64,000 bases of DNA from an uncultured Burkholderiales bacterium (GCA_964403515.1 CAYOGL010000022.1:1078-65077); one strand, 5' to 3'; shown: positions 27,117 through 46,128, counted from the stretch's first letter. Program-made: numbers and translations. Notes: generated from the sequence alone by a model not told the origin.

Positions 27117-27137
27117 AGCGCCGCAAAAGGAGAAACC

Positions 27138-27716: not shown

Positions 27717-27730
27717 ACGCGGAGACGGCC

Positions 27731-29011: not shown

Positions 29012-29096
29012 GCGCGGCGCTTCCGACGTGCCCGGACGCCGCCGCCAACGCACAGGCACAGACATTCCCGGGCCATCGATAAACGAGGAGGATCAG

Positions 29097-30110
29097 ATGT
29101 CGAGAGCATTGAAGTGGACTGCAACGCTCGTTCCGATCGCGGCATTGCTGGCGGCACCCCTCGCGCGGGCCGCCGACGCGATCCCCGAGCTGAAGATGCG
29201 CATCGCCGATTCCTACACCGCGGACATGCCATCGGGCATCGCGTTCCAGCACTTCGCCAAGCGCATCTCCGAGCTTTCCGGCGGCAAGATGACGGCGCGC
29301 ATCTATCCGGGCGGGACGCTCTATTCCGAGGACAAGGGCATCCAGGGCGTGCTCGACGGGACGGTCGACATGGCGCTCGCAAGCGCGGCCAACCACAGCC
29401 CGTTCACCAAGGTGTGGCGCGTGATCGAGGCGCCCTACCTCTTCGACAGCAACCAGCAGTTCCGCGACGTCATCATCCATGGAGACGTCGGCAAGGAGCT
29501 GCGCAAGCGCGCGGAGAAGGACCGACTCGTCCCGCTCATGATCTTCGAGACGGGCGGCATGCGCATCGTCGGCACGAACAAGCCGATCCATACGCCGGAG
29601 GATCTCGCGAACGCCAAGATCCGGGTGCCGCAATCGCCGGTGCCGCTCGCGTTCTGGAAGGCGGAGGGCGCGAATCCCACGGTCGTGCCGTGGGGCGAGA
29701 CCTACCTCGCGCTCGCCTCGAAGACGGTGGACGGGCTGGACGCGAGCTGGCTCTCCTGGCCGCTCGCGAAGCTGTGGGAGGTGACGAAGTACATCACGCC
29801 CGTGGGCTACTCATCGACCTCCTCGGTCGTCGACGTGTCGACCAAGTGGTGGGCCGAGCGCACGCCCAAGCAGAAGGAGATCATCCTGCAGGCGGCGAAG
29901 GAGGCCGAGGACGTCGCCATCCAGGAGGAGGACAAGTGGGAAAAGAAGGCCCGCGAGATGTGCATCAAGAACGGCATGACGATGATCGATCCCACGGCGC
30001 AGCAGATGGACGAGTGGCGCAAGAAGGGCCGTTCCACGTGGGCTACGCTCCCGGACGTCTCGCAGGCGGACCTCAAGCGGATCGCGTCGCTCAACCACAT
30101 CAAGATGTAG
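29097..30110 (+). CDS. TRAP substrate-binding protein (DctP)
   Basis: Signal peptide, [25 protein letters not shown]. Confidence 0.92.
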
Positions 30111-30138
30111 CGCGCGAGGCGATGGGCAAGCCACTGGC

Positions 30139-30879
30139 ATGACCAAGATCGCAGTGGTGACGGGGGCGGCCTCCGGGCTCGGCTTCGCCATCGCCGCGCG
30201 CCTGGCGCGCGACGGGTGTGCGCTGGTCATGGCCGACCTCGACGCGGCCGCTGCGGAAGCGCGCGCCTCGGAGCTTAGTGCGCGAGGTTTCGAGGCGATC
30301 GCCAACCGGCTGGACGTCACGCGGCCCGCGGATGTGTCGAAGGTGGTCACAACGGTGACAGACCGCTTCGGTCGCATCGATCTCCTCGTGAACAACGCGG
30401 GCGTGCTCGGCCCCTGCGTTTCCCTGGTCGAGGTGACCGACCGCGACATCGCGCAGGTGCTCGACGTGAACGTGAAGGGTGTCGTCCACTGCCTGCGGGC
30501 CGTGCTGCCGGTGATGCTGCGGCAGAAATCCGGCGCGATCGTGAACATCGCATCGACCGCCGCGAAGGAAGGTCCTGCCCTCATGTCGCTCTATGCGGCG
30601 AGCAAGGGCGCGGTCGTCGCGCTCACGAAGTCGGCCGCGCGGGAGACGGTGTCTTCTGGCATCCGCGTGAACTGCGTGACACCCACGCTCATCGGCGAGA
30701 CCGGAATGGAGAAGGCGATGCCCGACCACTTCCGCGAGAACTCGATCCGCCAGATCCCGATGGGCCGGCCGGGCAAGCCGGACGAAGTCGCTGCGGTCGT
30801 CGCATTTCTCCTCTCCGACGACGCGAGCTTCGTCACCGGCCAGTGCTACGACGTGAGCGGCGGCCGATCAACCTGGTAG
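30139..30879 (+). CDS. SDR oxidoreductase
   Basis: [17 protein letters not shown]. Confidence 0.94.
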
Positions 30880-30890
30880 CCCATGCGAGC

Positions 30891-31691
30891 ATGAATTCCG
30901 ATCCGCAAGCCGATGTTCTCCCCTCTCCCGAAACCGTGCGCAGCCAGTTCGATCTGGGCGGCAGCATCGCGCTCGTCACCGGCGCCGGCAGCGGCCTGGG
31001 ACGCGCGATCGCATGGGGTTTGGCATGCCATGGGGCGGATCTCGTCATCGCCGATCTCGACGCCAATGCCGCCTCGCGGGTAGCCGACCAGATAAGGGCC
31101 CTTGGACGTCGCGCACTCGCGATCGCCGTCGACGTGACCGACGAGGGGCAGGTCGAGGACATGGTTTCGCGCTCCCTGCGTGAGTACGGACGCATCGATA
31201 TCAGCGTGAACAATGCGGGCAACAATTGCCGCAAGCCGATCCTGGAGATGTCGGCGCAGGAGTTCGACCGAGTGGTGGACGTCCATCTGCGCGGAACGTT
31301 TCTGTGCGCACGCGCCGTCGGCCGCAGCATGGTGGAGCGGGGCAAGGGAAAGATGATCAACCTCGCCTCGATCATGGGACATGTCGGCGCTCCCGCGATC
31401 GGGCCGTATGCGGCGGCTAAAGGTGGAATCCTGCAGCTCACCAAGGTGCTCGCCCTGGAATGGGCGCCTTATAACGTACAGGTCAACGCGCTCTCACCGG
31501 CGCACTTCGACACGGCTCTCACTCGCCAGCATAGCCCCGAGATGCGAGCCGCGATAATGGAAGAAAACCCGCAGCGCCGATTCGCCTCGCCTGCAGAACT
31601 TATCGGCGCGGCCGTGCTGTTGGCCTCTCCCGCATCGAGTTTCATCACGGGTACATCCCTCCTGGTCGACGGCGGTTGGACCGCGCGCTGA
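30891..31691 (+). CDS. SDR oxidoreductase (gluconate 5-dehydrogenase-like)
   Basis: TGAGSGLG, NNAG, YAAAK. Confidence 0.93.
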   Translation: MNSDPQADVLPSPETVRSQFDLGGSIALVTGAGSGLGRAIAWGLACHGADLVIADLDANAASRVADQIRALGRRALAIAVDVTDEGQVEDMVSRSLREYGRIDISVNNAGNNCRKPILEMSAQEFDRVVDVHLRGTFLCARAVGRSMVERGKGKMINLASIMGHVGAPAIGPYAAAKGGILQLTKVLALEWAPYNVQVNALSPAHFDTALTRQHSPEMRAAIMEENPQRRFASPAELIGAAVLLASPASSFITGTSLLVDGGWTAR

Positions 31692-31713
31692 GCGCTGACC
31701 GGATCGGCGACGC

Positions 31714-32457
31714 ATGGCAAACGGTATCGAAGGCAAGGTCGTCGTCATCACAGGCGCCAGCAGCGGGCTCGGAGAGGCGGCAGCTCGCCTGCTCTCGAGA
31801 GAAGGCGCGATCGTGGTCCTCGGGGCCCGGCGCGTGGATCGTCTGCGCAGCATCGTGGCTCAGCTCTGCGCGAACGATCGCAAGGCGCTCGCGTTCGAAA
31901 CCGACGTCACCCGATTCGAGCAGGTCAAGCGCCTCGTCGACGGGGCCGTGGACGCTTTCGGCCGCATCGACGTCATGGTCAACAACGCGGGACTCATGGC
32001 GCACTCGCTACTCGAGCGCGTGAAGATCGCCGATTGGGACCGCATGATCGACGTGAATCTTCGCGGCGTGCTGCACGGGATCGCCGCGGCGCTGCCGCAG
32101 ATGCAACGGCAGCGCTCGGGCCACATCATCAACGTCTCGTCGATCTCCGGCCACAAGGTGCGTCCGACCACTGCGGTCTACGCGGCGACGAAGCACGGCG
32201 TTCGAGCGATCACCGAAGGGCTGCGGCAGGAAGTCAAACCGTACAACATCCGGACGACGGTGATCTCTCCGGGCGCCGTCGACAGCGAGTTGCCCCAAGG
32301 GCTCACGGAACCCGATATCGCCGACAAGATGCGCAAGCTCTACGAGATCGCCTTGCCCGCCGAATCGTTTGCACGCATGGTCGCGTTCGCGATCAGCGAG
32401 CCCGAAGACGTCGACGTGAACGAGATCGTATTCCGGCCGACGCGGCAGGAGCTGTAG
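31714..32457 (+). CDS. SDR oxidoreductase (YdfG/clavaldehyde dehydrogenase-like)
   Basis: [25 protein letters not shown]-terminus. Confidence 0.93.
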
Positions 32458-32558
32458 GGAAGCGAGCTGGCCGGTGTCCAATCGGAGGTTCGGGCGCGGC
32501 GTGCGCGTCGTGCTGGGGCGGGGCTAGAGAGGATAGTTCCGGCGAGTGCCCAGCGCGA

Positions 32559-33140
32559 TCAAGGCGAGAACAGCTCGTCCACCGCGACCACGATTGCGGG
32601 CAAGGCAGCGCATGCGACGCGCTGGCCACTCCGCACACAGGACGTCTCGCCGTAGCCGCTCTCGCTCGGCGTGCGAAAGACGTGTATGGCGCGACTGTTC
32701 ACGTCCACGACCCAGAGCTCCGCGATGCCGCAACGCGCATAAAGCGCCGCCTTCCTTCCGAGGTCGAACGCGAGCGTCGTGTCGGCGACCTCGACGACGA
32801 GATGGACATCCGCCGCCTGCGGATGCGAGCTCGCATAGTCGTCGGCGCGTGGCCTGAGGAGCGCCAGATCCGGCTGGGGCACCGAGAGATTCGAGATGAT
32901 GACCGGATTCTGCACGGCGACGACGGCCGTATTGCCCGCGCGCTGGACCAACAGCCGTGTCAACTTGTTGACGCACCCGGCGTGCGGGCTGCCGATCGGC
33001 GCCATCTCGATGATCTCCCCTTCGATCAACTCGAGCCGGGCCTCGGGCGCAAACACGCCCGCTTCGCCCATGCGGAGGTACTCCGCGGCGCTGATCGGGT
33101 GCTTCTGGGGGTGATCGAGAAGTGCGCTCATTGCGGACAT
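32559..33140 (-). CDS. Uma2-family PD-(D/E)xK endonuclease-like protein
   Basis: ELIEGEIIEMAP, PQPDL, LVVEVA, YARCGIAELWVVD. Confidence 0.9.
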   Translation of the reverse strand: MSAMSALLDHPQKHPISAAEYLRMGEAGVFAPEARLELIEGEIIEMAPIGSPHAGCVNKLTRLLVQRAGNTAVVAVQNPVIISNLSVPQPDLALLRPRADDYASSHPQAADVHLVVEVADTTLAFDLGRKAALYARCGIAELWVVDVNSRAIHVFRTPSESGYGETSCVRSGQRVACAALPAIVVAVDELFSP

Positions 33141-33188
33141 CGTACTGCCGGCTCCATGCTGCATCAACGCGGGGTCGGCGGCGGTCGT

Positions 33189-33848
33189 TTACGGGCCGAA
33201 CGTCGTGCCGTGCTCTTGCGCGACCTGCCTCAACGCCTGCTCATAGCGCTCCGGCGGCTGCGCGCCTTCGAGCGCGTACTTGTCCTCGACGATCACTAGC
33301 GGCACGCCGGACACTCCCCGCTGCAGCCAGTAGCGCTCTCGTTCACGAACCTCCGGCTCGAACTCGCGGCTTTCGAGGACCGACCGGGCGCGTGCCGAAT
33401 CGAGACCGACCGCGCCGGCGAGCTCCATGAGGACATCGGGCGCCGCGGGATTGCGTCCTTCGCCGTGATACGCGCGAAGCAGCGCACGCTCGAGCGGCAA
33501 GGCGCGACCCTCGAGACCCGCCCAGTGCAGCATTCGGTGAGCGTCGAAGGTGTTCCATACGTGCTTGCGATCCCCGAACTTGAAGCCCACCGCCGCCCCG
33601 CTTTGGCGGATGCGTGCCTGGGTCTGCGCGATCTGCCCGGGCGTGCGACCGTACTTGCGCGCGAGGTACGGCACCACTTCCGTTCCTTCCGGGCCCATGT
33701 CGGGATTGAGCTCGAAGGGCTCGATGTGCACCGTGGTTTCGATTTCACCGCCGATGCGCGCGAGTGCCTGGTCGAGTGACGCAAGTCCGATGGCGCACCA
33801 CGGGCAAGCGACGTCGGAGATGAAGGACAGATTGAGGTGTGGTTTCAT
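33189..33848 (-). CDS. DsbA/FrnE-like oxidoreductase
   Basis: SDVACPWCAIG, NTFDAHR, GVSGVP. Confidence 0.92.
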   Translation of the reverse strand: MKPHLNLSFISDVACPWCAIGLASLDQALARIGGEIETTVHIEPFELNPDMGPEGTEVVPYLARKYGRTPGQIAQTQARIRQSGAAVGFKFGDRKHVWNTFDAHRMLHWAGLEGRALPLERALLRAYHGEGRNPAAPDVLMELAGAVGLDSARARSVLESREFEPEVRERERYWLQRGVSGVPLVIVEDKYALEGAQPPERYEQALRQVAQEHGTTFGP

Positions 33849-33948
33849 TGTCGCACCGATCGGCCGGCCGTCCTCGACGTATCGACCAGGATGAGCCAAG
33901 ATTGACGCGGGTTGCAGATCGCGTCTCGCACACTACCACGGAGATTTC

Positions 33949-34389
33949 ATGAGCGATCGAGTCGTGAAAGTCGGCCAGCTGGAGATCCGCTATCTCGTCG
34001 ATGGCGCGCAAGAGCGCGGATTGGGCGTGTTCGAACTGACGATCCCTCCCGGTTCGAACGTTCCTCCGCCCCACAGCCACAGCAAAAACGAGGAGTGCGT
34101 CTACGTGCTGGAAGGCGTGCTGCGGTACTCGGTCGACCAGGAGACCCGCGACCTGAAGGCTGGGGAGTGGATGTCGACGCCGCGAGGATCGGTGCACGCC
34201 TTCAGCAACCCCGGCTCGGAGACCGCACGCGCGCTCGTCATGCTCACACCGGATATCGGCGAGCAATATTTCCGCGACGTCGCAGCCGTCGTCGGCGCCG
34301 GCGGGCCGCCCGACCGGGCGAAGCTCCTCGAGGTGATGGGTCGATACGGCTTGGTCGCGGCCGCACCCAAGCAAGCGGCGCATGGCTGA
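33949..34389 (+). CDS. Cupin domain protein
   Basis: PPPHSH...EECVYVLEG, PRGSVHAFSN. Confidence 0.92.
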   Translation: MSDRVVKVGQLEIRYLVDGAQERGLGVFELTIPPGSNVPPPHSHSKNEECVYVLEGVLRYSVDQETRDLKAGEWMSTPRGSVHAFSNPGSETARALVMLTPDIGEQYFRDVAAVVGAGGPPDRAKLLEVMGRYGLVAAAPKQAAHG

Positions 34390-34424
34390 AGCGGTCGATC
34401 GATATCGATCGGATCGATAAGTCC

Positions 34425-34516
34425 CGTCTCCCCGGGGGTTGCGAATCGCGCTGAGGCTGATCCTCGCGCCGATTCGTTGCGAGCGCTAAAGCCAAGCGCT
34501 CGCGACCGCCGGCTCG
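34425..34516 (+). repeat. Structured repeat, copy 1: degenerate tRNA-Glu 3' end followed by two hairpins
   Basis: Aligns with 41264-41352; hairpin TTGCGAGCGCT-AAAGCCA-AGCGCTCGCGA at 34477-34505. Confidence 0.85.
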
Positions 34517-34682
34517 CGCGATTCACTCTCGGTGTCTGAGCCGCCGCATTCCGCGAAGAGACTCACGCGCTTCGACAACCCCAACAGCGCGGTGTCTCGC
34601 GATACGGGACAGCCAATTTCCCGTTGACATCCCGTTCGATTGCGGCGCTAGATGAGTTCTACTAACGAGACGGTGTCTCTCT

Positions 34683-35498
34683 ATGCGGGACGAGCTCAAA
34701 AGCCTGGATCGAGGACTGCGGGTGCTCACGGAGCTCGCGCAATCGAAGCAGCCGCTCGGCGTGCGAGAGCTGGCCCGACGACTCGCCATCGACCGCAGCA
34801 CCGTGCAGCGGTGCCTGACGACCTTGAAGTCACGCGGGTTCGTGCGGCAGGACGCGAGGTCGCGCGGGTATGAGTTGGGATACGCCTCACGCGCGCTCGC
34901 CGCCTCCATCGCGACTACCGACGATCTGATTGCCGCGAGCGAAGGCCCGATGAGGGCATTGGCAGCCGCCGCTGGCGAGACGATCTGCCTGAACGTCCGC
35001 GAAGACGGCTGGCGCGTGCTCCTCTTCCAGGTCGAGAGCGATCAGCCGCTGCGCTATTCCATCAAGCTCGGCCAGCGCTACCCGCTGCATTGCGGCGCGG
35101 CCAGCAAGGTGCTCGTGGCGTTTCTTCCCGAGGAGGAATTCGCGGCGTTGCGCGGCGAAATTGACTCGAACTGGAAGAGCCTCACGCAAGCCACCCCCGC
35201 GAGCTGGCGCCAGTTCGAGCGCGCGCTCGCGGAGATCAGGGCGAACGGCTACGCGGTGACGCGAGGTGAGACTGTCGCAGGCGTCGTGGGCATCGCAGCT
35301 CCGGTCCGTGATGCGTCCGGCCGCGTCTTGGCAGCCCTGGGCGTGTACGGCCCCGAGATCCGTCTTGGACCCACCCGCGTCAGGCAACTCATCCCGCGCG
35401 TGAAGAAAGCAGCATCGGAGATTTCCATGGCCCTGGGCGCGCAGGCCCAGCGGCCCGGGAAGGCAGTGAAACGTGAACTCTTATATGCGGAGGCTTGA
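34683..35498 (+). CDS. IclR family regulator
   Basis: KSLDRGLRVL, RSTVQRCL, LHCGAASK, GVVGIAAPV. Confidence 0.94.
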   Translation: MRDELKSLDRGLRVLTELAQSKQPLGVRELARRLAIDRSTVQRCLTTLKSRGFVRQDARSRGYELGYASRALAASIATTDDLIAASEGPMRALAAAAGETICLNVREDGWRVLLFQVESDQPLRYSIKLGQRYPLHCGAASKVLVAFLPEEEFAALRGEIDSNWKSLTQATPASWRQFERALAEIRANGYAVTRGETVAGVVGIAAPVRDASGRVLAALGVYGPEIRLGPTRVRQLIPRVKKAASEISMALGAQAQRPGKAVKRELLYAEA

Positions 35499-36353
35499 AT
35501 GGCAAAGGAAAGCGTCATCGAAAGGACTTCGGACGTCACGCGGCACGCCAAGAGCGGGGGCGGCCGCCTGATCGAAAAGGCGGGACGGATGGTGCTCACG
35601 GACATCATCTACCGCAAGGATGGGCCGATCGCCCGCATCACGCTGAATCGCCCGCAGGTGCGCAACGCCTTCACATACGAGACGCAGAAACAGCTGCGCG
35701 AGATCTGGAAGGACTTCGACAAGGATCCGGATCTGCGCGTCGCGATCCTGAACGGCAATGGAGCTGCATTCTGCGCCGGCGTCGACATGAACAAGGAAAC
35801 GGTGCTGAGCCACGGCGAATTCCATTCCGACGGCGTCGTCTACTTCGACCTCGACTACTACTCGAAGCCGATCATCGCTGCCATACATGGAGCGGCGGTC
35901 GCGGGCGGATGCAGCCTGGCGCTGGGCGCCGATGTCGTGATCGCGGCGGAGGGAACGAAGATCGGCTATCCGCAGACGCGCTTCGGCTTCATGGCGGGCG
36001 GAGAGGGGCAGGTGCGCTTCTATCACCTGTCACCCAACCTGTGCCGCTGGTACATGATGTCCGGCGAGCTTCTGAGCGCCGAAGAAGCGTACCGGATCGG
36101 CATGATCCTGGAGGTCGTGTCGCAGGAGCGGCTGCTCAAGCGCGCCGACGAGCTCGCGCAAAAGCTGCTCGATTGCTCGCCGCTGGCCGTGAAGTACACG
36201 AAGGAATCGCTCGTCGCGGTGGAAGGCGTGCCGATGTACGAGGGCTATCGGCGCTCGCGCATCGTCTGCAACAAGTACTACGAGACGGAGGACTACCAGG
36301 AAGGCGTTCGCGCATTCGTCGGCAAGCGCAAGCCGGTGTTCAAGGGCCGCTGA
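35499..36353 (+). CDS. Enoyl-CoA hydratase/isomerase family protein
   Basis: ITLNRPQVRNA, AFCAGVDM, KPIIAAIHG..AGG. Confidence 0.92.
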   Translation: MAKESVIERTSDVTRHAKSGGGRLIEKAGRMVLTDIIYRKDGPIARITLNRPQVRNAFTYETQKQLREIWKDFDKDPDLRVAILNGNGAAFCAGVDMNKETVLSHGEFHSDGVVYFDLDYYSKPIIAAIHGAAVAGGCSLALGADVVIAAEGTKIGYPQTRFGFMAGGEGQVRFYHLSPNLCRWYMMSGELLSAEEAYRIGMILEVVSQERLLKRADELAQKLLDCSPLAVKYTKESLVAVEGVPMYEGYRRSRIVCNKYYETEDYQEGVRAFVGKRKPVFKGR

Positions 36354-36362
36354 GGCGCGGTC

Positions 36363-37478
36363 GTGGACTTGCGCGAATGCGAAGGTAAGCAGCTCCTCGC
36401 GAGGTACGGCATCGCCGTGCCTCGCGGGGCGATCGCCCGTACGCCGGACGACGCTGCGGCCATCCAGCGCGACCTCGGCACGCGGGTCGTGTTGAAAGCG
36501 CAAGTTCTCGCGGGCGGACGGGGCAAGGCAGGACTCGTTCAGGTGGCGGAGCCGAGCGAGGTGCAGCGGGTGGCCGAAACGCTGCTCGGCGCCCGGCATC
36601 GAGGCGAGCGCATCGGCGCCATCCTCGTGGAAGAGGCGCTCTCGCCTAGGGCCGAGTGCTATGCCTGCGTCGTGCTCGATACGTCATCGCGTACCCGGAA
36701 GCTCTTCGTATCGATCGAGGGCGGCGTCGACGTCGAGGCGCACCGCGATGCCGTGCGATCGATTGCATTCACGCGGAAGAGCCGCCCGCCCGCCGACGAG
36801 CTCCAGAAAACCTGGCGAGGCCTCGGCTGCGCCGTCGGAAGCGAAACCGCGCTCGCCACGTTCACCGAAAAACTCGTCGAGTGCTTCATCGAGACCGGCG
36901 CTCGGCAGGTCGAGGTGAATCCGGCGGGACTCGACGCGCGACGAGTCATCGCGATGGACTCGAAGGTCGTGGTCGAAGACAACGCCGAGCTGCCGATCGA
37001 GCGGCTCGACGCAGGCGACGCGGGTCTTGAAGACGAAGGCCGCTCGCTGGGGCTTCCGATGGTGCTGCTTGGAGGAAAGATCGGCGTCATCACGAGTGGC
37101 GCGGGCCTCGGGCTCGCCACCGTCGACACCATCTCCGCATGCGGTTCATCGGCCGCGAACTTCCTGGATCTCGGCGGCGGCGCGAGCGCCGAGCGCATGA
37201 AAACGGCCATCGATCTCGTGCGCCGCGTTCCGGGGGTGCAGGCGATCTTCGTGAACGTGCATGGCGGGCTCAACGACTGCATGCTGCTCGCCGAGGGCGT
37301 GCTCGCGTCGGGCGCAGCCGAGATCATGCCGGTGCTCGTCCGTATGTCCGGTTACCGGGCGCCCGAGGCGCGGGCGCTGCTGCAGTCGCGCGGTGTTCGC
37401 CATGCGGGCGTCGATCCGATGGACGAGTGCGTCGCATCGCTCGCCGCGGCACTGGCGCCGGCGGCCGTGTCCGCATGA
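36363..37478 (+). CDS. Succinyl-CoA synthetase beta-like ATP-grasp subunit (divergent)
   Basis: MDLRECEGKQLL, KAQVLAGGRGKAG, SGAGLG, ANFLDLGGG. Confidence 0.88.
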   Translation: MDLRECEGKQLLARYGIAVPRGAIARTPDDAAAIQRDLGTRVVLKAQVLAGGRGKAGLVQVAEPSEVQRVAETLLGARHRGERIGAILVEEALSPRAECYACVVLDTSSRTRKLFVSIEGGVDVEAHRDAVRSIAFTRKSRPPADELQKTWRGLGCAVGSETALATFTEKLVECFIETGARQVEVNPAGLDARRVIAMDSKVVVEDNAELPIERLDAGDAGLEDEGRSLGLPMVLLGGKIGVITSGAGLGLATVDTISACGSSAANFLDLGGGASAERMKTAIDLVRRVPGVQAIFVNVHGGLNDCMLLAEGVLASGAAEIMPVLVRMSGYRAPEARALLQSRGVRHAGVDPMDECVASLAAALAPAAVSA

Positions 37479-38371
37479 ATCCGCTTGCCCTGCTCCACGC
37501 CTCCACGCCGATCGTGCTTCAGGGCATCTCCGGCCGGCAGGGGCGGGTGCAGGTGATGCGGCTGCTGCAGAGCGGCACGCGAGTAGTTGCCGGCGTGGCG
37601 CCTGGGCATGGTGGCGAGACCATCGAAGGTGTCCCCGTCTTCGATGGAATGAAGCAAGCGGTCGATGAGACGGGAGCCCGGGTGGCGATGATCATGGTTC
37701 CCCCACGCGCAGCGCCCGAAGCGGTGATTGAAGCGATCAGCGCACGAATGCGCCTCATCGTGCTCGTCACCGAGCATATCGCCGCCCAGACCGCCCTTGA
37801 CCTCGTTGAAGAGGCGCGCGCGAACGGTAGTTGTCTGATCGGGCCGAATACCGCCGGACTGATCCTTCCGGGACGCGTCAAGATCGGCATCATGGCCCAC
37901 GAGATGTACATGTCTGGTGCAATGGCGCTGCTCTCGCGTAGCGGCACGCTGATGAGCGAGGTCGCGCACCAGCTCAAGAATGCTGGTGTCGGCCAATCGG
38001 TCTGCATCGATATCGGCGGCGATCCGATCGTGGGGCACGGATTCGCGGAAGTGCTCGGCTGGCTCCGGAGCGATGGCAAAACGAAAGCCGCGGCCATACT
38101 GGGGGAGATCGGCGGGCGGCAGGAGCACGAGGCGTGTCAACACCTGCGGGACGCGGGCCTGCCCTTCCCGATCTACGGTCTCGTCGTCGGTCATGCCGCG
38201 CCCGACGGCAGACGCATGGGCCACGCCGGCGCGCTCATCGAAGGTGAAGCGAGCACGGCACGCTCGAAAACGGCAGCGTTCGAACAGCTTGGAATCAGGA
38301 CCGCAGCCACCGTGGATCAGCTCGTGCGCCGGATTCGGCGAGATCTTGCGGAAGCGGAGGTTGCGGCATGA
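37475..38371 (+). CDS. Succinyl-CoA synthetase alpha-like subunit (divergent)
   Basis: QGISG, IGPNTAG, SRSGTL, IGGDP, RMGHAGA phospho-His. Confidence 0.9.
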   Translation: MNPLALLHASTPIVLQGISGRQGRVQVMRLLQSGTRVVAGVAPGHGGETIEGVPVFDGMKQAVDETGARVAMIMVPPRAAPEAVIEAISARMRLIVLVTEHIAAQTALDLVEEARANGSCLIGPNTAGLILPGRVKIGIMAHEMYMSGAMALLSRSGTLMSEVAHQLKNAGVGQSVCIDIGGDPIVGHGFAEVLGWLRSDGKTKAAAILGEIGGRQEHEACQHLRDAGLPFPIYGLVVGHAAPDGRRMGHAGALIEGEASTARSKTAAFEQLGIRTAATVDQLVRRIRRDLAEAEVAA

Positions 38372-39246
38372 ATGCCGCGGCGGCTGCATTCGTCGCCACG
38401 CGCGAGCTCGGTCTTCACGTCTACGGGCACTTGCTGGGAATCTGGTGCGAGGCCGTGAATGCGAAGACTTGCGAAGCGACCATGGCGAATGCCGCGCATT
38501 GTCTCGACGAGCGCGGCCTGCCTGCCATCGGCGCTCTCGCCACGCTGGGCGACATGGCGATGCAGACGGCGCTGCTCGCGACGTATCCGGGACAGCGACT
38601 CGCGACGAGGAATATCACCGTCCGCCGCTTCGTGACCGAGCCTTGTTCCGACATCCATGCGACCGCCAGAGCTTTGTGCAGCCTGGCGAAGTATGCGGCG
38701 GCGGAGACGCTCTTTTCGGGCGATTCCGGCGCCCCCCTCGCTCACGCGACCGCCACATTCGTTCCCGTTCGCCCGCCGCGCGGCTGGCAGCCGCTTCCGT
38801 GGGAGCTCGGAAAAGGCCGCCCCACCTCCCGCGAGACCGAGTCGTCGCTGAATCTGAGCGCCGATGAACGAGCCGCCTCCGACGCGCTGCAACGCGTGCT
38901 CGAGCGAGCCGACGTTCGCTACGCCGATTTGCTGGGGTTAGGCGATAAGGGCCTCGCTGGCGAAAGCTGCCGATGGCCGCTGCAGGAACATCTTCTGAAC
39001 CGGGCGAAGGAAGCGCAGGGCGGCGCCATCTTCGGCGCACTCGCCGAGCGATCTCGCCGATTAGCCCCCGACTCCGCCGTCACGCGCGAACACACAACGA
39101 TCTATTTCCGGCCGGCCATGACCGACCTGACGATCGATGCGCGCATCGTGCGCGCGGGCAGGCGGTTCGTGGCGACGACGGCAAGCGCCGTGGACGAGGA
39201 AGGCGAGCTCGTCGCAACCGCGTGGAGTGAGTTCACGGTCGAGTGA
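38368..39246 (+). CDS. Double hot-dog fold thioesterase-like protein
   Basis: Two PaaI-like halves (ATLGDMAM; QGGAIFG...ARIVRAGRRF). Confidence 0.75.
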   Translation: MNAAAAAFVATRELGLHVYGHLLGIWCEAVNAKTCEATMANAAHCLDERGLPAIGALATLGDMAMQTALLATYPGQRLATRNITVRRFVTEPCSDIHATARALCSLAKYAAAETLFSGDSGAPLAHATATFVPVRPPRGWQPLPWELGKGRPTSRETESSLNLSADERAASDALQRVLERADVRYADLLGLGDKGLAGESCRWPLQEHLLNRAKEAQGGAIFGALAERSRRLAPDSAVTREHTTIYFRPAMTDLTIDARIVRAGRRFVATTASAVDEEGELVATAWSEFTVE

Positions 39247-39311
39247 GCCAGGGAGAAGAAAAGGAACGTTCGCATATGAGTTGAGCCGAGCACGGCCGGC
39301 TGGAGGGGAAC

Positions 39312-40286
39312 ATGATGAGGCTCTTTGGCAGAATCATTGCTGCGTCGACGGTCGTCGCATGCGCAATCGGCATCTGTTTCGGCGACGAGCCGTATCCGAG
39401 TCGACCCGTGCACATTCTCGTGCCGTTCACCGCGGGGACCAACGCCGATCTTGTCGCGCGCATGTATGCCGATCGCTTGAGCCAGCGGCTCGGACAATCG
39501 TTCGTCGTCGAGAACCGGCCCGGCGCCGGCGGCGTGGTGGCCGCCGTAACACTCCTCGCTGCGCCGGCCGACGGCTACACGGTCATGTTCGTATCCTCGG
39601 CGCACGCCGTGAATCCCAGCTTCTACAAGAAGCTGCCTTATGACACGCTCGCCGACTTTTCCGGAGTCGCGCTCGTCGGCAGCTCGCCCACGGTGCTCGT
39701 GGTGAGTCCTGCGCTCGGCGCCAGGACGCAGACCGATTTCGTGAAACTGGTCTCCGCGAATCCGGGCAAGCTCAACTTCGGCTCGGCCGGCATTGGCAGC
39801 GCGACGCATCTGGCGTGCCAGGCGTTTCTCGACGACGCGCATCTGGACATGGTGCACGTGCCGTACAAAGGGGTGCAGGAAATCCTCACGGATCTCATGG
39901 GCGGACGACTGCAGCTTGGATGTCCGCCGGTGGGACTCGCCGCGCCGCAAGTGAAGGCCGGTCGACTGCTCGCTCTTTCGATCATGAGCGACAAGCGCAG
40001 TCCGCTTCTGCCCGATGTGCCGACGAGCGCCGAGGCGGGACTCGACGGAGCGGACTTCGGCATCTGGTACGGGATGGTCGCTTCGAGCAAGACGCCGAAG
40101 CCAATTCTCGAGCGGCTCGCGAACGCCGTGTCGGAAGTCTCGAAGGAGCCGCAGCTGCAAGAGACGATGCTCAAGCAGGGTGTCGTGCCTCAGTTCGTCG
40201 CGCTCACGAGCTTTGATGCGTTCATCAAGAGCGACATCGCGCGATTCCACAAGATGGTCGCCGAGCCGATCGCCAGTCTGAAATGA
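39312..40286 (+). CDS. Bug/TctC substrate-binding protein
   Basis: VPFTAG..AD, VENRPGAGG, VHVPYKG. Confidence 0.93.
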   Translation: MMRLFGRIIAASTVVACAIGICFGDEPYPSRPVHILVPFTAGTNADLVARMYADRLSQRLGQSFVVENRPGAGGVVAAVTLLAAPADGYTVMFVSSAHAVNPSFYKKLPYDTLADFSGVALVGSSPTVLVVSPALGARTQTDFVKLVSANPGKLNFGSAGIGSATHLACQAFLDDAHLDMVHVPYKGVQEILTDLMGGRLQLGCPPVGLAAPQVKAGRLLALSIMSDKRSPLLPDVPTSAEAGLDGADFGIWYGMVASSKTPKPILERLANAVSEVSKEPQLQETMLKQGVVPQFVALTSFDAFIKSDIARFHKMVAEPIASLK

Positions 40287-40378
40287 GCGGTGGGATTGCG
40301 AATCGTACGCGGGCCGTGGCAGCAACGAAGAGCGCGTCTACTTGCTAAAAGGCGTGCTCCCGACGCCAATAATGGCGT

Positions 40379-40888
40379 ATGGCGTACTTCCTCTGCACCG
40401 AGCGGCTCGGCTTCCGTCACTGGTCCGACAGCGATTTCGAGCTCGCCATGGCGCATTGGGGCGACCCGGAGGTGACGCGGCTCATCGACTTGCGCACACC
40501 GCTCGGCCCCGAGCAGGTGCAGGAGCGACTCGACACTGAGATCGCCAACCAGAGGTTCTACGGCATGCAGTACTGGCCGATGTTCGCCCTCGAAGACGGG
40601 TCGCATGTCGGTTGCTGCGGGTTGCGGCCGCGCGCCAAGCGCGTGCACGAGCTCGGGTTCCACGTTCGCTCGAGGCTGTGGCGCAACGGTTACGCCTTCG
40701 AGGCGGCACGGGCGGTCGCCGCGTACGCCTTCGATGCGCTCGGAGCAAGCGAGCTCGTCGCGGGCCACCATCCGCGCAATGCCGCGTCTCGACGCGTGCT
40801 CGAGAAGCTCGGCTTTGAATTCGTGCGGGAAGAGTTCTACGCGCCGACCGGGCTGCGACATCCTTCCTACGTTCTTCGCGCCAAGTGA
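40379..40888 (+). CDS. GNAT N-acetyltransferase (RimJ/RimL type)
   Basis: TERLGFR, VGCCGL, ELGFH...WRNGYAFEAA, N.ASRRVLEKLGF. Confidence 0.93.
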   Translation: MAYFLCTERLGFRHWSDSDFELAMAHWGDPEVTRLIDLRTPLGPEQVQERLDTEIANQRFYGMQYWPMFALEDGSHVGCCGLRPRAKRVHELGFHVRSRLWRNGYAFEAARAVAAYAFDALGASELVAGHHPRNAASRRVLEKLGFEFVREEFYAPTGLRHPSYVLRAK

Positions 40889-40948
40889 GCTATTCGCCGG
40901 CGTTCGAACGGGACTCGATTGTGTGATCTCGACGTTCTTGCCGGACGC

Positions 40949-41194
40949 TCACGCCTTCGTTTTCGGCTTGCGGCCGGGCGTCGGCGGGGGGACGAAACCC
41001 GAGATGCGGCCTTGCCAGGCTTCGATCTGGCGCCCGTTCTCGAACTGGATCGTCCTGCACACGACGGCCTCGTGGCTTTCGGCCAGGGCGGCGAGGTGCT
41101 GCCTCACCGTGGCGAGCGGCACGCGCAGCTCCTTGGCGATCTCGAGGTCCAAGCGCTGGCCATGCTTCTTCAGGCACTGCAGGGTTTCGGTCAT
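40949..41194 (-). CDS. Small winged-helix-like protein
   Basis: LKKHGQRLDLEIAKELRVPLATVRQHL HTH pattern; basic tail PGRKPK. Confidence 0.75.
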   Translation of the reverse strand: MTETLQCLKKHGQRLDLEIAKELRVPLATVRQHLAALAESHEAVVCRTIQFENGRQIEAWQGRISGFVPPPTPGRKPKTKA

Positions 41195-41263
41195 GGGTGC
41201 TGTCCTCGAGGTGAAAAGATTGAAATCGGGTCGTGCGAGCGAAAATCAATGGCGCAAGTTGAA

Positions 41264-41352
41264 TCCCCACGGGGATTGCGAATCGCGCTGCGACTGATCC
41301 TCGCGCGATTCGTCCGAAGCGCCAAAGCCAGGCGCTTCGGACCGCCGGCCCG
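41264..41352 (+). repeat. Structured repeat, copy 2: 14-bp exact match to the tRNA-Glu 3' region plus two hairpins
   Basis: TCCCCACGGGGATT equals 44131-44144; hairpin TCCGAAGCGCC-AAAGCCA-GGCGCTTCGGA at 41313-41341. Confidence 0.85.
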
Positions 41353-41436
41353 AGAGAAACTGGGCTGGGCCGGCGTCCAATCGCAGGCTCGTGCCGAACG
41401 CCTGCGAGTGTCGAACCTTCATCGATCCTCATCGTG

Positions 41437-41502
41437 CGTGGGGACCGTACAAATGCAAACGGCCCGCTGCAGCGTGCCGTGTGCATTTGTGGCGTCCCCA
41501 CG
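41437..41502. repeat. 66-bp imperfect palindrome whose right arm is the att-like tRNA-Glu copy
   Basis: 27-bp arms 41437-41463 and 41476-41502 (4 mismatches) around a CGCTGCAGCG palindromic centre. Confidence 0.85.
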
Positions 41503-41597
41503 GCGATCGGACGAAAACCCCAGAACACCAATGCTACGGGGCACAACAGTCTTTCAAATTCAAAGACTTCGCCGCCGGGCTTAAGTATTTAATTATA

Positions 41598-41825
41598 CTA
41601 CTTAAGAAGCTCCCAAGCACCCACTTTTAGTGCAGTAGCGAGCTTGTGGATGTTTTCCAGCGATATGTTCCGTTCGCCACGCTCGACTTGGCCGACATAG
41701 CTCCTATCAAGTCCGCAATTCAGCGCGAGTTGCTCCTGGGAAAAGCCCGCACCAAGTCGGAGTTCACGAACCCGATCCCCAAAGGCTTTCCGTACTCTTG
41801 CCTGCCATTTGTCAGGCTTCTGCAA
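41598..41825 (-). CDS. XRE/HTH_3 regulator (controller-protein-like)
   Basis: FGDRVRELR...SQEQLA...LDRSYVGQVERGERNISLENI.KLA.AL. Confidence 0.92.
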   Translation of the reverse strand: MQKPDKWQARVRKAFGDRVRELRLGAGFSQEQLALNCGLDRSYVGQVERGERNISLENIHKLATALKVGAWELLK

Positions 41826-41927
41826 GATAAGCGCCTGAGCTGAAAAGCGCTCATCGTCGCCGCCAGATGCCTATAGTTCCACGGACTTTAAGTACCAATT
41901 TTGTCCGGCCGGCTGCAGAATGTGTGG

Positions 41928-42101
41928 ATGAAGCGACCCCGTCTCCTGTCGATCACATCCATCGGGAAGCCGGATTACGAGCTTGCCGCTCAGGGGCTGG
42001 CACCACTCTTTGCGCGCTTCCTCAAAAAGCGCCAGGCCAAAGCGAAGACGAAGGTTCTAAGGTTTCAAGAGCGTCTCAACCACCGACAGGGACGATCGTA
42101 A
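41928..42101 (+). CDS. Possible small basic protein divergent from the XRE gene
   Basis: 57-aa ORF with an amphipathic helix (YELAAQGLAPLFARFLKK); no recognisable family. Confidence 0.35.
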   Translation: MKRPRLLSITSIGKPDYELAAQGLAPLFARFLKKRQAKAKTKVLRFQERLNHRQGRS

Positions 42102-42124
42102 GCCGCTCAGCCAAATAACCGCAG

Positions 42125-43042
42125 CTATTTAACTAATTCCCTCGCCCATAGCGACGCAGTGGTCTGCGATGTGACCTGCTCAATTCGTAGCAACAGATCA
42201 CGACGTCTTATGCATTCATTGATGAAGGACGTGATGCGGCTCTGCTCGATTCGCTCAGCGACGTTTGTGCCGGTTCCAGCCGCATCAGGGATAACGGCTT
42301 GAGACCAATTGAGCGTCATGCCAAGGGAGTCGTTCCATCTAAAGTGACTCGTTGATGTACCACCCAAAGCGGTAACGAAGTCAAAGAACACCAACATTCC
42401 GGATTGCAAGGTCTCAAGCGGAATAGTACTGAACAGGCGCACGCACATCGTCTCGATTGCGAAGGACCGCATCTGAGTTGGTGGTGCGAGGTTGGCGTTC
42501 CACGCCTTCAATAGCTTGACCAGCGGCTTGAACTTCCCGCCCGATCGCTGATTCACCTGAGTTGCCAATTGCGCGTGAATGGCTGGCGCGGAAAGGAGCC
42601 ACTTGTTTTCATTCTTGTCGGGTATCCAAAGAAAACTAGCCCTTTCGTGAGGAACCGCGGGCACCACATCGATATTCAGGTGATACAACTGCAAACGGAC
42701 CGATCTTCTTTGCCCGAACACCGAGCTTACCGGATACCGATATCGGATCGCATTCGCGAATGTGTCAAGCACTTGTTCCGGAAACGCTGCGCTTGTGCCG
42801 ACAGGTGTGGGCCACTTTCGAATATCAATGGTGAAGATGATGTCAACATCATCTATCGGCCGGATCGCCGTATCCCTCGAATAGCTTCCGCTCAGGAAAC
42901 TGCCAGTAATGCGATCGCCAATCTGCCCTGTGTTCAGCAGGTCACGGAGATTTCTTTGGCTGCCGCTAGCGGCTTCCTTCTGCAGGGCACTAGGCTCATA
43001 CGCTCCAACGACATTCCAGAGATACGTCTCAACGGAGGCCAT
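42125..43042 (-). CDS. cGAS/DncV-like nucleotidyltransferase (CD-NTase/SMODS family)
   Basis: FLSGSYSRDTAIRPIDDVDIIF (hGS-x-DhD), third acid in NIDVVPA, LVKLLKAWN, RSFAIE, IPD...TNVA C-lobe motifs. Confidence 0.9.
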   Translation of the reverse strand: MASVETYLWNVVGAYEPSALQKEAASGSQRNLRDLLNTGQIGDRITGSFLSGSYSRDTAIRPIDDVDIIFTIDIRKWPTPVGTSAAFPEQVLDTFANAIRYRYPVSSVFGQRRSVRLQLYHLNIDVVPAVPHERASFLWIPDKNENKWLLSAPAIHAQLATQVNQRSGGKFKPLVKLLKAWNANLAPPTQMRSFAIETMCVRLFSTIPLETLQSGMLVFFDFVTALGGTSTSHFRWNDSLGMTLNWSQAVIPDAAGTGTNVAERIEQSRITSFINECIRRRDLLLRIEQVTSQTTASLWARELVK

Positions 43043-43919
43043 TGACGCCCTCGGCGAACACTCTCGCGCGACGGTTTAGGACCTGTGTCTGCGCTAGTAG
43101 CTGAGCGGGGAAATTGACCGGCACAAACCATAGGAATCCGGACAATATTTCTAGCTCAGGCGCGCCTAGTCTTATTTCTTTCGCGTCGTGCGAGTACGTG
43201 TAGACCAATAGCGGGACAGGTGGCGACTTTTGCTTTAACTGCTCGACGGCCGCAGCAAGGACGCGTCTGCCTTCATCGGTGCCGTCAAACGAAAGAATGC
43301 ACAAGTTGGCAGAGCCAACGGAGAACATCTCACCGGCAGGCGGCGTAACGATATTCAAGTTCATAACGCCTGCCGAACGAAGCGCTACCTGTTCCTCTTC
43401 AAACCTGCCGCTACCCTCCGGCATGATCCAAACAACCTGTGCACTCTTGAAAGCTGCAAGGTCATCGATTTGCTCCTGAAGGTCCTGCGTCTTTTGCCGA
43501 AGCCTAACCGCCTCTCTCTCTACAACTTCCTGTGCGAGCGCATCAAAGCGCTCTCCCATTGTCTTCCGGAATTCTCGATGAGTTCTGCCAAAGAAATAGA
43601 CGAAGAGGATCGCTGCAAAGCTCAAGACCGCGACGCCAACGCCAACGAGAGAACTGAAGATCGTTATCGCTCGGTCAACCGTTTGGTTGACGCTAGAAAA
43701 TTGCCGATCTGATTGGCGCTCGAGTATTTGGCGCTCTTCACCAAGCGCCTTCCGATAGGCGTCGAAGGAGACGATGCCAGGCTGCTGATCACTTGCACCT
43801 GAGCTCGCGGACTGTGGATTTGTTGCTTGCGTAGCAACCGGCGGTGTGCGCGATGCAACCGGAAGGGCTAACGATGCAGTAACGACCGCGATTAGTGCGA
43901 GGCCTCTTCTTGGTCTCAT
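43029..43919 (-). CDS. Membrane protein: signal peptide, periplasmic coil, 1 TM, cytoplasmic coiled coil, alpha/beta (Rossmannoid/receiver-like) domain
   Basis: MRPRRGLALIAVVTASLALP; TM IFSSLVGVGVAVLSFAAILFVYFF followed by GRTHREFRK; heptads; strands VVWIM, CILSF, LLVYT; 14-nt overlap with the CD-NTase start. Confidence 0.85.
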   Translation of the reverse strand: MRPRRGLALIAVVTASLALPVASRTPPVATQATNPQSASSGASDQQPGIVSFDAYRKALGEERQILERQSDRQFSSVNQTVDRAITIFSSLVGVGVAVLSFAAILFVYFFGRTHREFRKTMGERFDALAQEVVEREAVRLRQKTQDLQEQIDDLAAFKSAQVVWIMPEGSGRFEEEQVALRSAGVMNLNIVTPPAGEMFSVGSANLCILSFDGTDEGRRVLAAAVEQLKQKSPPVPLLVYTYSHDAKEIRLGAPELEILSGFLWFVPVNFPAQLLAQTQVLNRRARVFAEGVNGLR

Positions 43920-44066
43920 TTTTTCTCCCCCGTTGACGCGAATTCTATCTCCGCTTGATATCGGGAAGTCCAGAAGCCACCGACTGACAACGCGCGGCGC
44001 TGCTCGCTGCTCAGTGCGAGTTAGAGCACGATCAAATATCGCGGAATCGTTCTGGGGTTGGCGTCG

Positions 44067-44099
44067 AAAAAAAAGGGTTAGCTTGTCAGCTAACCCTTT
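44067..44099 (-). terminator. Rho-independent terminator downstream of tRNA-Glu
   Basis: GGGTTAGC-N6-GCTAACCC stem with an 8-nt A tract on + (U tract on -). Confidence 0.85.
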
Positions 44100-44125
44100 G
44101 TCTCAATGCTGGATTTCTAGAAGAG

Positions 44126-44201
44126 TGGCGTCCCCACGGGGATTCGAACCCCGGTTATCGCCGTGAAAGGGCGGTGTCCTAGGCCTCTAGACGATGGGGA
44201 C
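44126..44201 (-). tRNA. tRNA-Glu (anticodon TTC)
   Basis: GTCCCCA/TGGGGAC acceptor stem, CT-TTC-AC anticodon loop, GGTTCGAATCC, encoded CCA; 76 nt. Confidence 0.97.
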
Positions 44202-44242
44202 AAAGAAAACGGGAGCTAGAGGGCTCCCGGTTCCTGAAAACT

Positions 44243-44318
<76 letters not shown>

Positions 44319-44338
44319 GCACCGAGTCGAAGATTATA

Positions 44339-45724: not shown

Positions 45725-45847
45725 CGGAGGCGGCGGGGAAATCGACATTCTACGATTTCGGCGCCACACGCATTGCCGCCGCCGGCGCGCTAACGCCCCG
45801 CGGGCCGCCCGTCGCGCGGGCCGGCTCTGGTAAAATAGTCATTTCCC

Positions 45848-45922
45848 GGGTCGTTAGCTCAGCGGTAGAGCACTCCCCTCACACGGGAGGGGCCACTGGT
45901 TCGATCCCAGTACGACCCACCA
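45848..45922 (+). tRNA. tRNA-Val (anticodon CAC)
   Basis: GGGTCGT/ACGACCC acceptor stem, CTCCC-CTCACAC-GGGAG anticodon arm, GGTTCGATCC, CCA; 75 nt. Confidence 0.95.
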
Positions 45923-46016
45923 GGATTCCGCCGGGCCGCATCGCGAGGTGCGGCCCGCTGCATTTCCGGCTCCGGTACAATGAAAGCTTGCTCAACCCAT
46001 CGAAAGGAGGTGATCC

Positions 46017-46106
46017 GTGAGATCTCGAACCCATGATGTCGCCGTTGCAGCCGGGGCGGTTCTCCCCGCGGTCACCACCGTGGAAAGCATCGCCCGCACG
46101 CTCTGA
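46017..46106 (+). CDS. Candidate 29-aa small protein MRSRTHDVAVAAGAVLPAVTTVESIARTL
   Basis: GTG start directly after AAAGGAGGTGATCC (46003-46016); upstream TACAAT; downstream terminator. Confidence 0.5.
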   Translation: MRSRTHDVAVAAGAVLPAVTTVESIARTL

Positions 46107-46128
46107 CTGCAAGGGCGTTGGGTTTGCG

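Follow-up and report, generated by a model that had tools for sequence, protein, structure and literature searches.

Do the structured repeats found downstream of a bacterial tRNA-Glu gene belong to the elements that integrate there, or do they reside at the site and suffer the traffic of others? This question is raised by a stretch of 64,000 nt (the window hereafter, positions being counted from its start) from an uncultured Burkholderiales bacterium (GCA_964403515.1 CAYOGL010000022.1:1078-65077). A preliminary description of this DNA had reported two ~90-bp copies of a repeat, each starting with a copy of the tRNA-Glu 3' region, and had taken them for the ends of non-autonomous elements serially integrated at tRNA-Glu, marking the junctions between unrelated cargo genes. 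We find that this repeat, designated element E, is a structured non-coding element that is restricted to one genus of soil betaproteobacteria and invariably joined to a tRNA-Glu 3'-end copy, and that its stems are kept by compensatory change. Comparison with related genomes also supports the region downstream of tRNA-Glu as a probable hotspot of serial integration. The reading that we prefer, and to which we give an even chance, is that E is a resident, structurally selected and probably transcribed element derived from a tRNA-Glu 3' fragment, which the traffic at the hotspot has copied, split and scattered.

In what follows, G000 designates the window's own genome (an assembly of 150 contigs and 4.98 Mb), other G labels its Usitatibacter-like congeners (a 46-genome set), L labels contigs and X labels metatranscriptome assemblies. 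The minus strand of the window is the tRNA-sense strand.

Occurrence of the element

BLASTN finds two copies of E in the 4.98-Mb genome, at 34425-34516 (copy 1) and 41264-41352 (copy 2), with a mutual identity of 81% over 95 nt, the remaining matches being noise. Within the window, a covariance model matches the minus strand at 41259-41454 (200 bits) and at 34422-34619 (67 bits), and has no other match. By both methods, the two copies first described are thus real, and by BLASTN they are the only ones in the genome; a scatter across the genome, as expected of ordinary repetitive extragenic palindromic (REP) sequences, is not seen, both copies being tied to the tRNA-Glu locus. The relationship to the tRNA also holds. 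Indeed, TCCCCACGGGGATT, searched in the whole genome with at most one mismatch, is present at window position 41264 and inside tRNA-Glu at 44131 and nowhere else, and the match extends through CGAA with one 1-nt indel. No Rfam family matches the repeat: cmscan of positions 30000-47000 against Rfam 15, at an E-value of at most 1, returned only three tRNAs and two sub-threshold chance matches elsewhere, and ARAGORN called no tRNA or transfer-messenger RNA (tmRNA) pseudogene at E.

Beyond the window, E was detected in 12-13 of the 46 congeners, with one or two copies each; the 24 genomes sampled from the order's other families all lacked it. A survey of 185,579 species genomes added a single match, in a metagenome-assembled genome, and a pattern scan of metagenomes added 27 copies from soil and rhizosphere, bringing the collection to about 45 copies, ~15 of them genomic. 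Among the 16 metagenome copies with enough upstream sequence, 12 have a tRNA-Glu 3' end 140-190 nt upstream of the second hairpin of E (hp2), and eight of these 12 include the whole tRNA-Glu. The usual state is one complete resident unit right after the tRNA-Glu terminator, with no cargo, which does not support the copies as marks of cargo junctions in general.

Anatomy of the element

Read on the tRNA-sense strand, the canonical unit consists of tRNA-Glu, an intrinsic terminator, a segment called a3', a short loop, GGTTCGA, CA, hp4, GGA, hp3, G, hp2, hp1, C and AATCCCCGTGGGGACGCCA (s3'). Its core, made of the four hairpins hp1-hp4 and ~135 nt long, is placed exactly in the T-loop (TTCGA / AAT) of a tRNA-Glu 3'-end copy, and TTCG(A)CAA-like repeats lie at both core junctions. 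The a3' segment is an inverted copy of tRNA nt ~51-76; it is often decayed, and intact (TGGCGTCCCCACGGGGTAC..) in G030, L118 and L125. In G012 and L130, a clean tRNA-Glu fragment, from the anticodon arm to TTCGA, is joined straight to the core. Complete copy 2 spans about 41262-41445. The extent given at first must accordingly be revised: the two ~90-bp copies exist, but a complete copy adds two hairpins and the inverted tRNA-end copy. The parts of copy 2 are as follows.

41418-41445, minus strand: a3', a decayed inverted tRNA-Glu 3' end (GTCCCCACG...), which pairs with s3' to close E (alignment A3, described below; minimum free energy fold)
41278-41417, minus strand: E core with its left junction (covariance-model match, covariation, fold z-score of -5.5)
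41417-41411, minus strand: GGTTCGA
41410-41378, minus strand: hp4
41375-41343, minus strand: hp3
41341-41313, minus strand: hp2, with the invariant loop TGGCTTT
41312-41279, minus strand: hp1
41278, minus strand: junction C
41262-41277, minus strand: s3', AATCCCCGTGGGGAtt, corresponding to the 3' half of the tRNA-Glu T-loop, the T-stem and the 3' strand of the acceptor; the CCA end is decayed

Two metagenome copies, L128 (4804-5045) and L120, carry an extra hairpin-forming insert of ~45 nt in the hp4 loop (..tctccctt..gagaggg..); it resembles a small repeat element inserted within E.

Conservation of pairing

The 11-bp stem of hp2, whose loop reads AAAGCCA on the plus strand, differs at five pairs between the two copies, and each of these differences keeps the pairing (four compensatory double changes and one T.G to C-G replacement), exactly as had been read from the sequence. 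The same behaviour extends to the whole collection. In an alignment of 23 complete copies made with MAFFT only (A3), with a consensus obtained by RNAalifold, 15 pairs show double changes; seven of these pairs are in hp4, where none is broken. A larger alignment of 40 copies (A5), aligned to the sense-strand covariance model, has 95.5% of its stem cells in standard pairs, with double changes in 26 of 45 pairs (113 cells). None of 500 shuffles reached these values, and partners slid out of register were paired in 31-43% of cells, with 9-20 double-change cells; A5 is fitted to the model, and the MAFFT-only result agrees with it. E therefore displays covariation-supported helices, one of the two marks of a structured RNA, the other being a transcript whose strand and ends are defined.

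This pairing is maintained despite sequence change, as the core turns over much like the adjacent gene, a short helix-turn-helix (HTH) gene described below: mean identity between genomes is about 81% for the core versus about 83% for that gene. An apparently slower evolution of E, suggested by BLAST identities of 94-97% over 117 nt, was dropped in view of these two values. The hp2 loop TGGCTTT is invariant in the alignment, partly by selection among the metagenome copies, since the search pattern contains it; the hp3 loop CCCAGCTTCTCT is largely conserved, being invariant or nearly so, like the junction TTGGACG. By contrast with the core, which is kept, many copies show decay of a3' and of the outer half of s3'; the helix that they form (helix 1) is 88.5% paired, with many U.G pairs.

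The tRNA-Glu gene as a probable integration hotspot

The tRNA-Glu(UUC) gene sits behind gltX and tRNA-Ala. It is the single tRNA-Glu gene of the whole 150-contig assembly, and it is 100% identical in every congener where it was located. Its surroundings in the window comprise:

44126-44201, minus strand: tRNA-Glu(UUC) (ARAGORN; Rfam tRNA, 56 bits), the 3' end of which would be the attachment site of the hotspot
41508-44125, no strand assigned: low-GC islet without integrase, encoding an XRE-type HTH protein, a SMODS cyclase and a 296-aa membrane protein (Pfam PF18144, PF01381)
41481-41507, minus strand: displaced, partly degenerate copy of the tRNA-Glu 3' end (TGGCGTCCCCACGG, then cGATcGgAC), forming the distal direct repeat of the islet
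41454-41480, minus strand: palindrome homologous to the tRNA-operon terminator of relatives
40949-41194, minus strand: 81-aa winged-helix/HTH gene, a genus-conserved ancestral neighbour downstream of tRNA-Glu

The islet (2.6 kb) has a GC content of 53% versus about 65% in its flanks, and its direct repeats are 41481-41507 and 44126-44152; TGGCGTCCCCACGG is found in the former and in tRNA-Glu, and nowhere else in the genome. In the congener G016, which has no SMODS islet, the homologue of 40962-41507 directly abuts tRNA-Glu. Low GC content, the TGGCGTCCCCACGG repeats and this empty site together lead us to regard 41508-44125 as an islet inserted into the tRNA-Glu 3' end. Two features by which genomic islands at tRNA genes are recognized, a direct repeat of the tRNA 3' end and an empty site in a relative, are thus present; a third, an integrase gene at the end next to the tRNA, was found neither in the window nor in the examined islets of relatives. 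Copy 2 and the HTH gene make up the ancestral flank of tRNA-Glu, since displaced. The islet is of the type of cyclic-oligonucleotide-based antiphage signalling systems (CBASS), its SMODS protein being a CD-NTase-like cyclase and its 296-aa protein unannotated. Immediately beyond it lies a 66-bp palindrome (41437-41502) composed of tRNA end, terminator and a3', which arises because the inverted tRNA-end copy faces the displaced tRNA end across the terminator.

Congeners hold other islets at this place. They measure 0.7-14 kb and end in 16-19-nt repeats (CCCCGTGGGGACGCCA) or in pieces of the 3' half of tRNA-Glu that reach about 55 nt; the islet families with clear ends share the bare 16-19-nt tRNA core and have different arms and no E hairpins. 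Cargo at the hotspot of relatives is often toxin-antitoxin or defence-like. Among the examples are Phd with a zeta-like P-loop kinase in G004 (L086, 11341-12440), a PIN-like toxin with its antitoxin in G024 (L019, 10490-11160), an AAA ATPase with an S8 subtilase/peptidase in L138 (401-3763) and a PIN_8 protein in L131 (10911-11963). G012 (L016, 9199-9246) has an inverted 48-nt copy of the tRNA-Glu 3' half upstream of tRNA-Ala, adjoining a small gene, a further sign that recombinases have been active to either side of the two tRNA genes. Serial integration at tRNA-Glu, as first proposed, is therefore supported by the SMODS islet, the empty site of G016, the other islets of relatives and the absence from congeners of the IclR gene cluster considered below.

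The HTH gene is a different matter. It follows tRNA-Glu in most congeners, including those lacking E, and this conservation shows that it is not cargo. Its sequences are about 80-86% alike in a star-like pattern and too short to resolve gain or loss of E. In three genomes lacking E (G061, G025 and G022), the gene begins 20-25 nt past the tRNA-Glu terminator; such a gap leaves no room for a promoter, so the gene may depend on terminator read-through of the tRNA operon.

Fragments of the element and the cargo that they adjoin

The other traces of E in the window are incomplete, and they were compared with what chance would yield:

34425-34516, minus strand: copy 1, right half only (covariance-model match of 67 bits; alignments), with a remnant of the hp3 3' arm (CCGGCGG), hp2 (34477-34505, minus), hp1 (34441-34476, minus) and a decayed s3' (34425-34440, minus)
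40292-40305, minus strand: 14-nt scrap joining the end of the hp1 3' arm to the start of s3', 5 nt past the TctC stop codon
32467-32495, minus strand: left-half scrap (hp4 3' arm, GGA, hp3 5' arm), directly past the stop codon of an SDR gene
33909-33923, no strand assigned: claimed 13/15 scrap, indistinguishable from chance
34517-40291, plus strand: cargo comprising an IclR regulator, an enoyl-CoA hydratase, a two-subunit CoA ligase, a thioesterase-like protein and a TctC binding protein (Pfam)

The hp2 of copy 1 is of a 'GCGAG' type, as in G008_a, L128 and L130, and unlike that of copy 2. Copy 1 is 81% identical to copy 2 and 86% to G008_a; being no closer to the former than to the latter, it represents an old or imported lineage of E. 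Two of the shorter pieces reported earlier stand: the exact 14-mer at 40292-40305 has 0.05 matches expected by chance, and the piece near 32467 matches 41368-41387 at 18 of 20 positions (32469-32488) with 0.01 expected. The third, at 33909-33923, is at chance level, with 0.83 matches expected.

The genes named as cargo were correctly identified (Uma2, DsbA, cupin, the IclR cluster, TctC, GNAT and HTH), but the HTH gene does not belong among them, as it persists beside tRNA-Glu in relatives lacking E. The IclR cluster is absent at the DNA level from all 45 congeners. Cargo in the window lies on both strands and includes this 6-gene cluster with its own IclR regulator. The DsbA-family gene (33189-33899) is found in most congeners at 75-79% DNA identity, there hundreds of kb from tRNA-Glu and among variable neighbours, which suggests that the G000 gene, lying between pieces of E, was relocated. 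Its synteny was tried as evidence and says little, this being a core gene with variable neighbours across the genus.

In the collection as a whole, at least eight genomes or contigs have variable cargo flanked by half copies and tandem units; the earlier observation of repeat pieces at the borders of variable cargo is thus borne out in several genomes. Right halves (hp3 3' arm, hp2, hp1 and s3') come after unrelated DNA in copy 1 of G000 and in G004, G008_b, G024_b and L131, whereas left halves (terminator, a3', hp4 and hp3 5' arm) run into unrelated DNA in G016 after the HTH gene, in the second copy of L123, in G028 and in the 32467 scrap of the window. G016, G012 and G008 have a second piece of E after the HTH gene, and G004 has a toxin-antitoxin pair (zeta/Phd) between a3' and hp2. 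Tandem units of tRNA end, terminator and E occur in L138, G024, L122 and L137. Finally, s3' directly precedes the starts of two islet families (L131, L118, L125, L113, L138 and G024). As islets start right behind it, s3' appears to act as a secondary attachment site, and we infer that the tRNA-Glu end and the pseudo-3' end of E both serve as attachment sites.

No recombinase could be linked to these structures. The previously noted absence of a recombinase from the window extends to its whole contig, where no tyrosine recombinase (PF00589) is found; in G000, PF00589 matches lie on contigs C43 (XerD), C6 and C8 (adjoining tRNA-Met), and the genome holds XerC, XerD and one tRNA-Met-linked integrase only. 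A 431-aa open frame on C43, which has the best PF00589 score, was considered as the integrase of E and proved to be XerD. A co-occurring tyrosine recombinase, which the preliminary description had proposed to look for, was not found near E in ten genomes (G000 and nine others), nor was an integrase detected in the window or in any examined islet of relatives. Likewise, neither an excised form nor a trans-acting enzyme was found for the terminator-E units and the cargo flanked by tRNA-end repeats.

Proposed reading: a resident element carried along by the traffic at the hotspot

The preferred reading starts from the strand and the molecule that fold. Over 40 copies, G.T wobbles outnumber A.C mismatches on the tRNA-sense strand by 39 to 12 (24 versus 11 within hp4-hp1), a bias that points to folding of the window minus strand. 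The preliminary description had favoured the plus strand, from one pair in copy 1; the 40-copy count reverses this. Five metatranscriptome assemblies from soil or mine drainage (X6, X21, X22, X23 and X24) contain E, in contigs covering 41264-41380/41417 at 87-100% identity and a depth of 2-4. In X6, E is the sole part of 24101-44100 assembled at 95% identity or more, which suggests that E RNA is more abundant than the neighbouring mRNAs. The tmRNA was tried as a yardstick of abundance and proved uninformative, as its conserved segments from all bacteria pile up.

E would then be single-stranded and folded, the simplest case being an RNA transcribed from the tRNA operon or behind it. Several islet families would recombine with a tRNA-end sequence of 16-26 nt, of which the s3' of E would offer a second site. 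The terminator-E unit could have been multiplied, split and scattered by repeated integration, both at s3' and at the end of the tRNA, by unequal exchange among the 16-26-nt direct repeats, by import of foreign alleles of the locus and by deletions. In the window, the outcome would be a complete ancestral copy shifted by 2.6 kb by the CBASS-type islet and, behind the IclR cluster, a right half that stems from another E lineage, as well as two scraps. Copies of E would mark junctions because they carry or adjoin attachment sequence.

Several points weigh against this reading. The metatranscriptome contigs carry no strand, making the evidence for an E RNA weak; such contigs could also come from read-through of a very active tRNA operon, or from DNA carry-over. 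The wobble count ignores phylogeny and comes from an alignment fitted to a sense-strand model, and both strands fold about equally well in silico (-103 and -99 kcal/mol). Moreover, the break points of half copies cluster around hp3, where left halves end and right halves begin; this clustering and the tandem units are expected of a mobile unit or of a recombination site inside E. A passive landmark also leaves unexplained the exact placement of the core in a T-loop and the TTCG(A)CAA-like repeats found at its two junctions.

Alternative explanations

These last points are those on which the nearest competitor draws. E may form the terminus or attachment arm of a family of T-loop-class integrative elements that are non-autonomous and whose integration is catalysed in trans; we hold this to be possible, if on the whole improbable. 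A unit made of tRNA-end core, terminator, inverted core, hp4-hp3, cargo and hp2-hp1 would enter the tRNA-Glu 3' end or an earlier s3', the site being either double-stranded or a folded single strand in which the paired tRNA-end copies imitate the target, in the way of integron attC sites or of CTX phage; the cargo-less form of 135-300 nt would be a miniature version. Such an element would account for the direct repeats at the core junctions, for a single core junction with two left contexts (the inverted copy, or the anticodon-arm fragment of G012 and L130), for the tandem units and for the halves flanking cargo (G004, G000_c1, G024_b, G008_b, L131, G016 E' and L123). The order of direct repeat, hairpin spacer, inverted repeat, body and direct repeat is the trace expected from integration of a folded hairpin site; the different lineages of copies 1 and 2 and the clustering of break points near hp3 agree as well. 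The identity block TTCG(C)AATCCCCGTGGGGACGCCA likewise fits a T-loop sublocation, a class that Williams's 2002 classification of tRNA integration sites reportedly includes.

However, none of the about 15 genomic copies has a recombinase beside it, nor does G000 encode one for tRNA-Glu. The majority of copies stand alone, syntenic and free of cargo, and a tRNA would not be restored by a T-loop insertion of the kind observed. The core is preserved, but the inverted copy and the outer part of s3' decay freely, so that a supposed folded mimic of the target is probably not under selection. Unequal crossing-over at 19-26-nt repeats makes tandems with no need of an element-specific enzyme, the break points of half copies spread over about 13 nt rather than falling at one exact place, and no circles or empty sites of such a unit were observed.

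A bolder form of the same idea, argued by analogy, is that E would be the working end of an undescribed integrase-less cassette system on a tRNA scaffold, operating with an enzyme in trans and either via RNA or through single-stranded DNA folded by the hairpins together with the paired inverted and direct tRNA-end copies. Units would be inserted serially into the tRNA-Glu T-loop or 3' end, in the manner of attC or of CTX-type folded-site recombination. We regard this proposal as improbable; if true, such a system would assemble defence, toxin-antitoxin and catabolic cargo beside a tRNA gene.

It is unlikely that E acts in cis on the 81-aa HTH gene, as its 5' leader or as a regulatory RNA, from a position between the tRNA terminator and that gene. 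E does lie directly upstream of the gene on the same strand, followed by a shared segment of ~60 nt, in G000, G016, G069, L126 and L139, and the promoterless spacer of genomes lacking E would make expression depend on what occupies it. Against this, E is downstream of the gene in G012 and G008, islets or terminators rather than the HTH gene come after E in many contigs, no sigma-70-like promoter is predicted in 40850-41650, and the gene is conserved where E is missing.

Even less can be said for copies of E being neutral scars of old attachment sites, with hairpins that are accidental palindromes or ordinary terminators, an account that we deem very improbable. Scar-like behaviour is indeed seen in the decayed flanks that derive from the tRNA and in the two scraps (40292 and 32467); for the core, the idea is contradicted by covariation, with 95.5% of stem cells paired at about 19% divergence and 26 pairs showing double changes. 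Nor do the hairpins look like terminators: they have no T-tracts, none of hp1-hp4 was called by intrinsic-terminator prediction, and the sole call at E (41271-41253) is a weak 6-pair stem. Finally, an element of the REP type or derived from IS200/IS605, moved by an HUH enzyme to a TTCGA target, would suit the subterminal hairpins at both ends, a size usual for palindrome-associated transposable elements (PATEs), the want of terminal inverted repeats of its own, the TTCGA left flank and the ..TTCGCA right end, but is nearly excluded by copy number, as a 5-nt target would scatter copies genome-wide and there are two in the genome, all about 45 known copies being in a tRNA-Glu T-loop context.

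Other repeats in the window

Three further repeats were noted. Eight to ten diverged tandem units of ~150 nt (..CCCCAGCA..GCGCACGTGTG..) occupy 50940-52980 on the minus strand and probably encode a repeat protein with units of about 50 aa. A 47-nt repeat at 56370-56416 and 63473-63529 ends in GATGAACACAGAT, which is tandemly duplicated at the second site. A 300-nt direct repeat (2851-3150 and 48097-48396; 80% identity, 45 kb apart) probably reflects paralogous genes.

Comparison with known systems

What E would mean depends on its nature. As an RNA, it would represent a new motif derived from a tRNA, with an expression pattern that is easily testable; as a recombination module, it would reveal the way in which defence and toxin-antitoxin islets lacking an integrase are shuffled at a tRNA gene. 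Either way, the covariance model R1 or the hp2 pattern provides a handle to find this hotspot in soil metagenomes.

The closest known parallel is the tandem accretion of islands and cis-mobilizable elements at tRNA and tmRNA genes, described at the Asn tDNAs of Klebsiella (PMC4891358) and at the tmRNA gene in the ssrA islands of Dehalococcoides (PMC3146451), and covered by reviews on integrative conjugative and mobilizable elements (PMC5812530, PMC5704250). As in these systems, successive foreign segments are delimited by repeats of the tRNA 3' end in direct orientation, several classes of integrase would use one gene (with repeats of 16-19 nt, about 23 nt and about 55 nt), and decayed islets lacking an integrase coexist with an empty site in a relative. 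Unlike them, the present locus has a covarying four-hairpin module welded to one repeat class, in the T-loop, together with an inverted tRNA-end copy, and no integrase is linked to it anywhere examined.

Integron attC sites share with E structured repeats at cargo borders and stems kept by compensatory change, a likeness that suggests, by analogy, recognition of a folded single strand. However, the E locus has no IntI, attI or Pc, nor does the window contig have a PF00589 match; E is conserved in sequence and not in structure alone, and most copies are cargo-less. Whereas integron cassettes are mostly single promoterless open reading frames in one orientation, cargo at the E locus is of mixed orientation and includes operons with their own regulators.

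The folded attP of CTX phage, used by XerCD, likewise has two inverted target copies around a short hairpin-forming spacer, and its integrated order of repeat, spacer, inverted repeat, body and repeat is that of E. The target of E is nevertheless a tRNA end rather than dif, phage genes are missing, and the inverted copy, present in most E units and degenerate in many, decays and is probably not under selection.

REP sequences, bacterial interspersed mosaic elements (BIMEs) and the PATEs related to IS200/IS605 resemble E in being short, hairpin-rich, non-coding and intergenic. REP and BIME copies are dispersed by tens to hundreds, whereas E is limited to a single locus, with one or two copies per genome; PATEs use many target sites of 4-5 nt, and every E copy is in the tRNA-Glu T-loop context. 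No RAYT or TnpA turned up, though no search aimed at Y1/HUH genes was made. Such tRNA-like RNAs as the tRNA-like domain of tmRNA and YrlA also have ends derived from acceptor and T-arm around a large structured insert; E differs in having its insert within the T-loop and tRNA-like ends that have decayed in many copies, and Rfam has no match.

Island accretion at tRNA genes is thus ordinary. What is new here is a covarying, unannotated four-hairpin motif of ~135 nt, confined to a tRNA-Glu T-loop remnant at an integration hotspot, where it occurs as whole, half and tandem copies.

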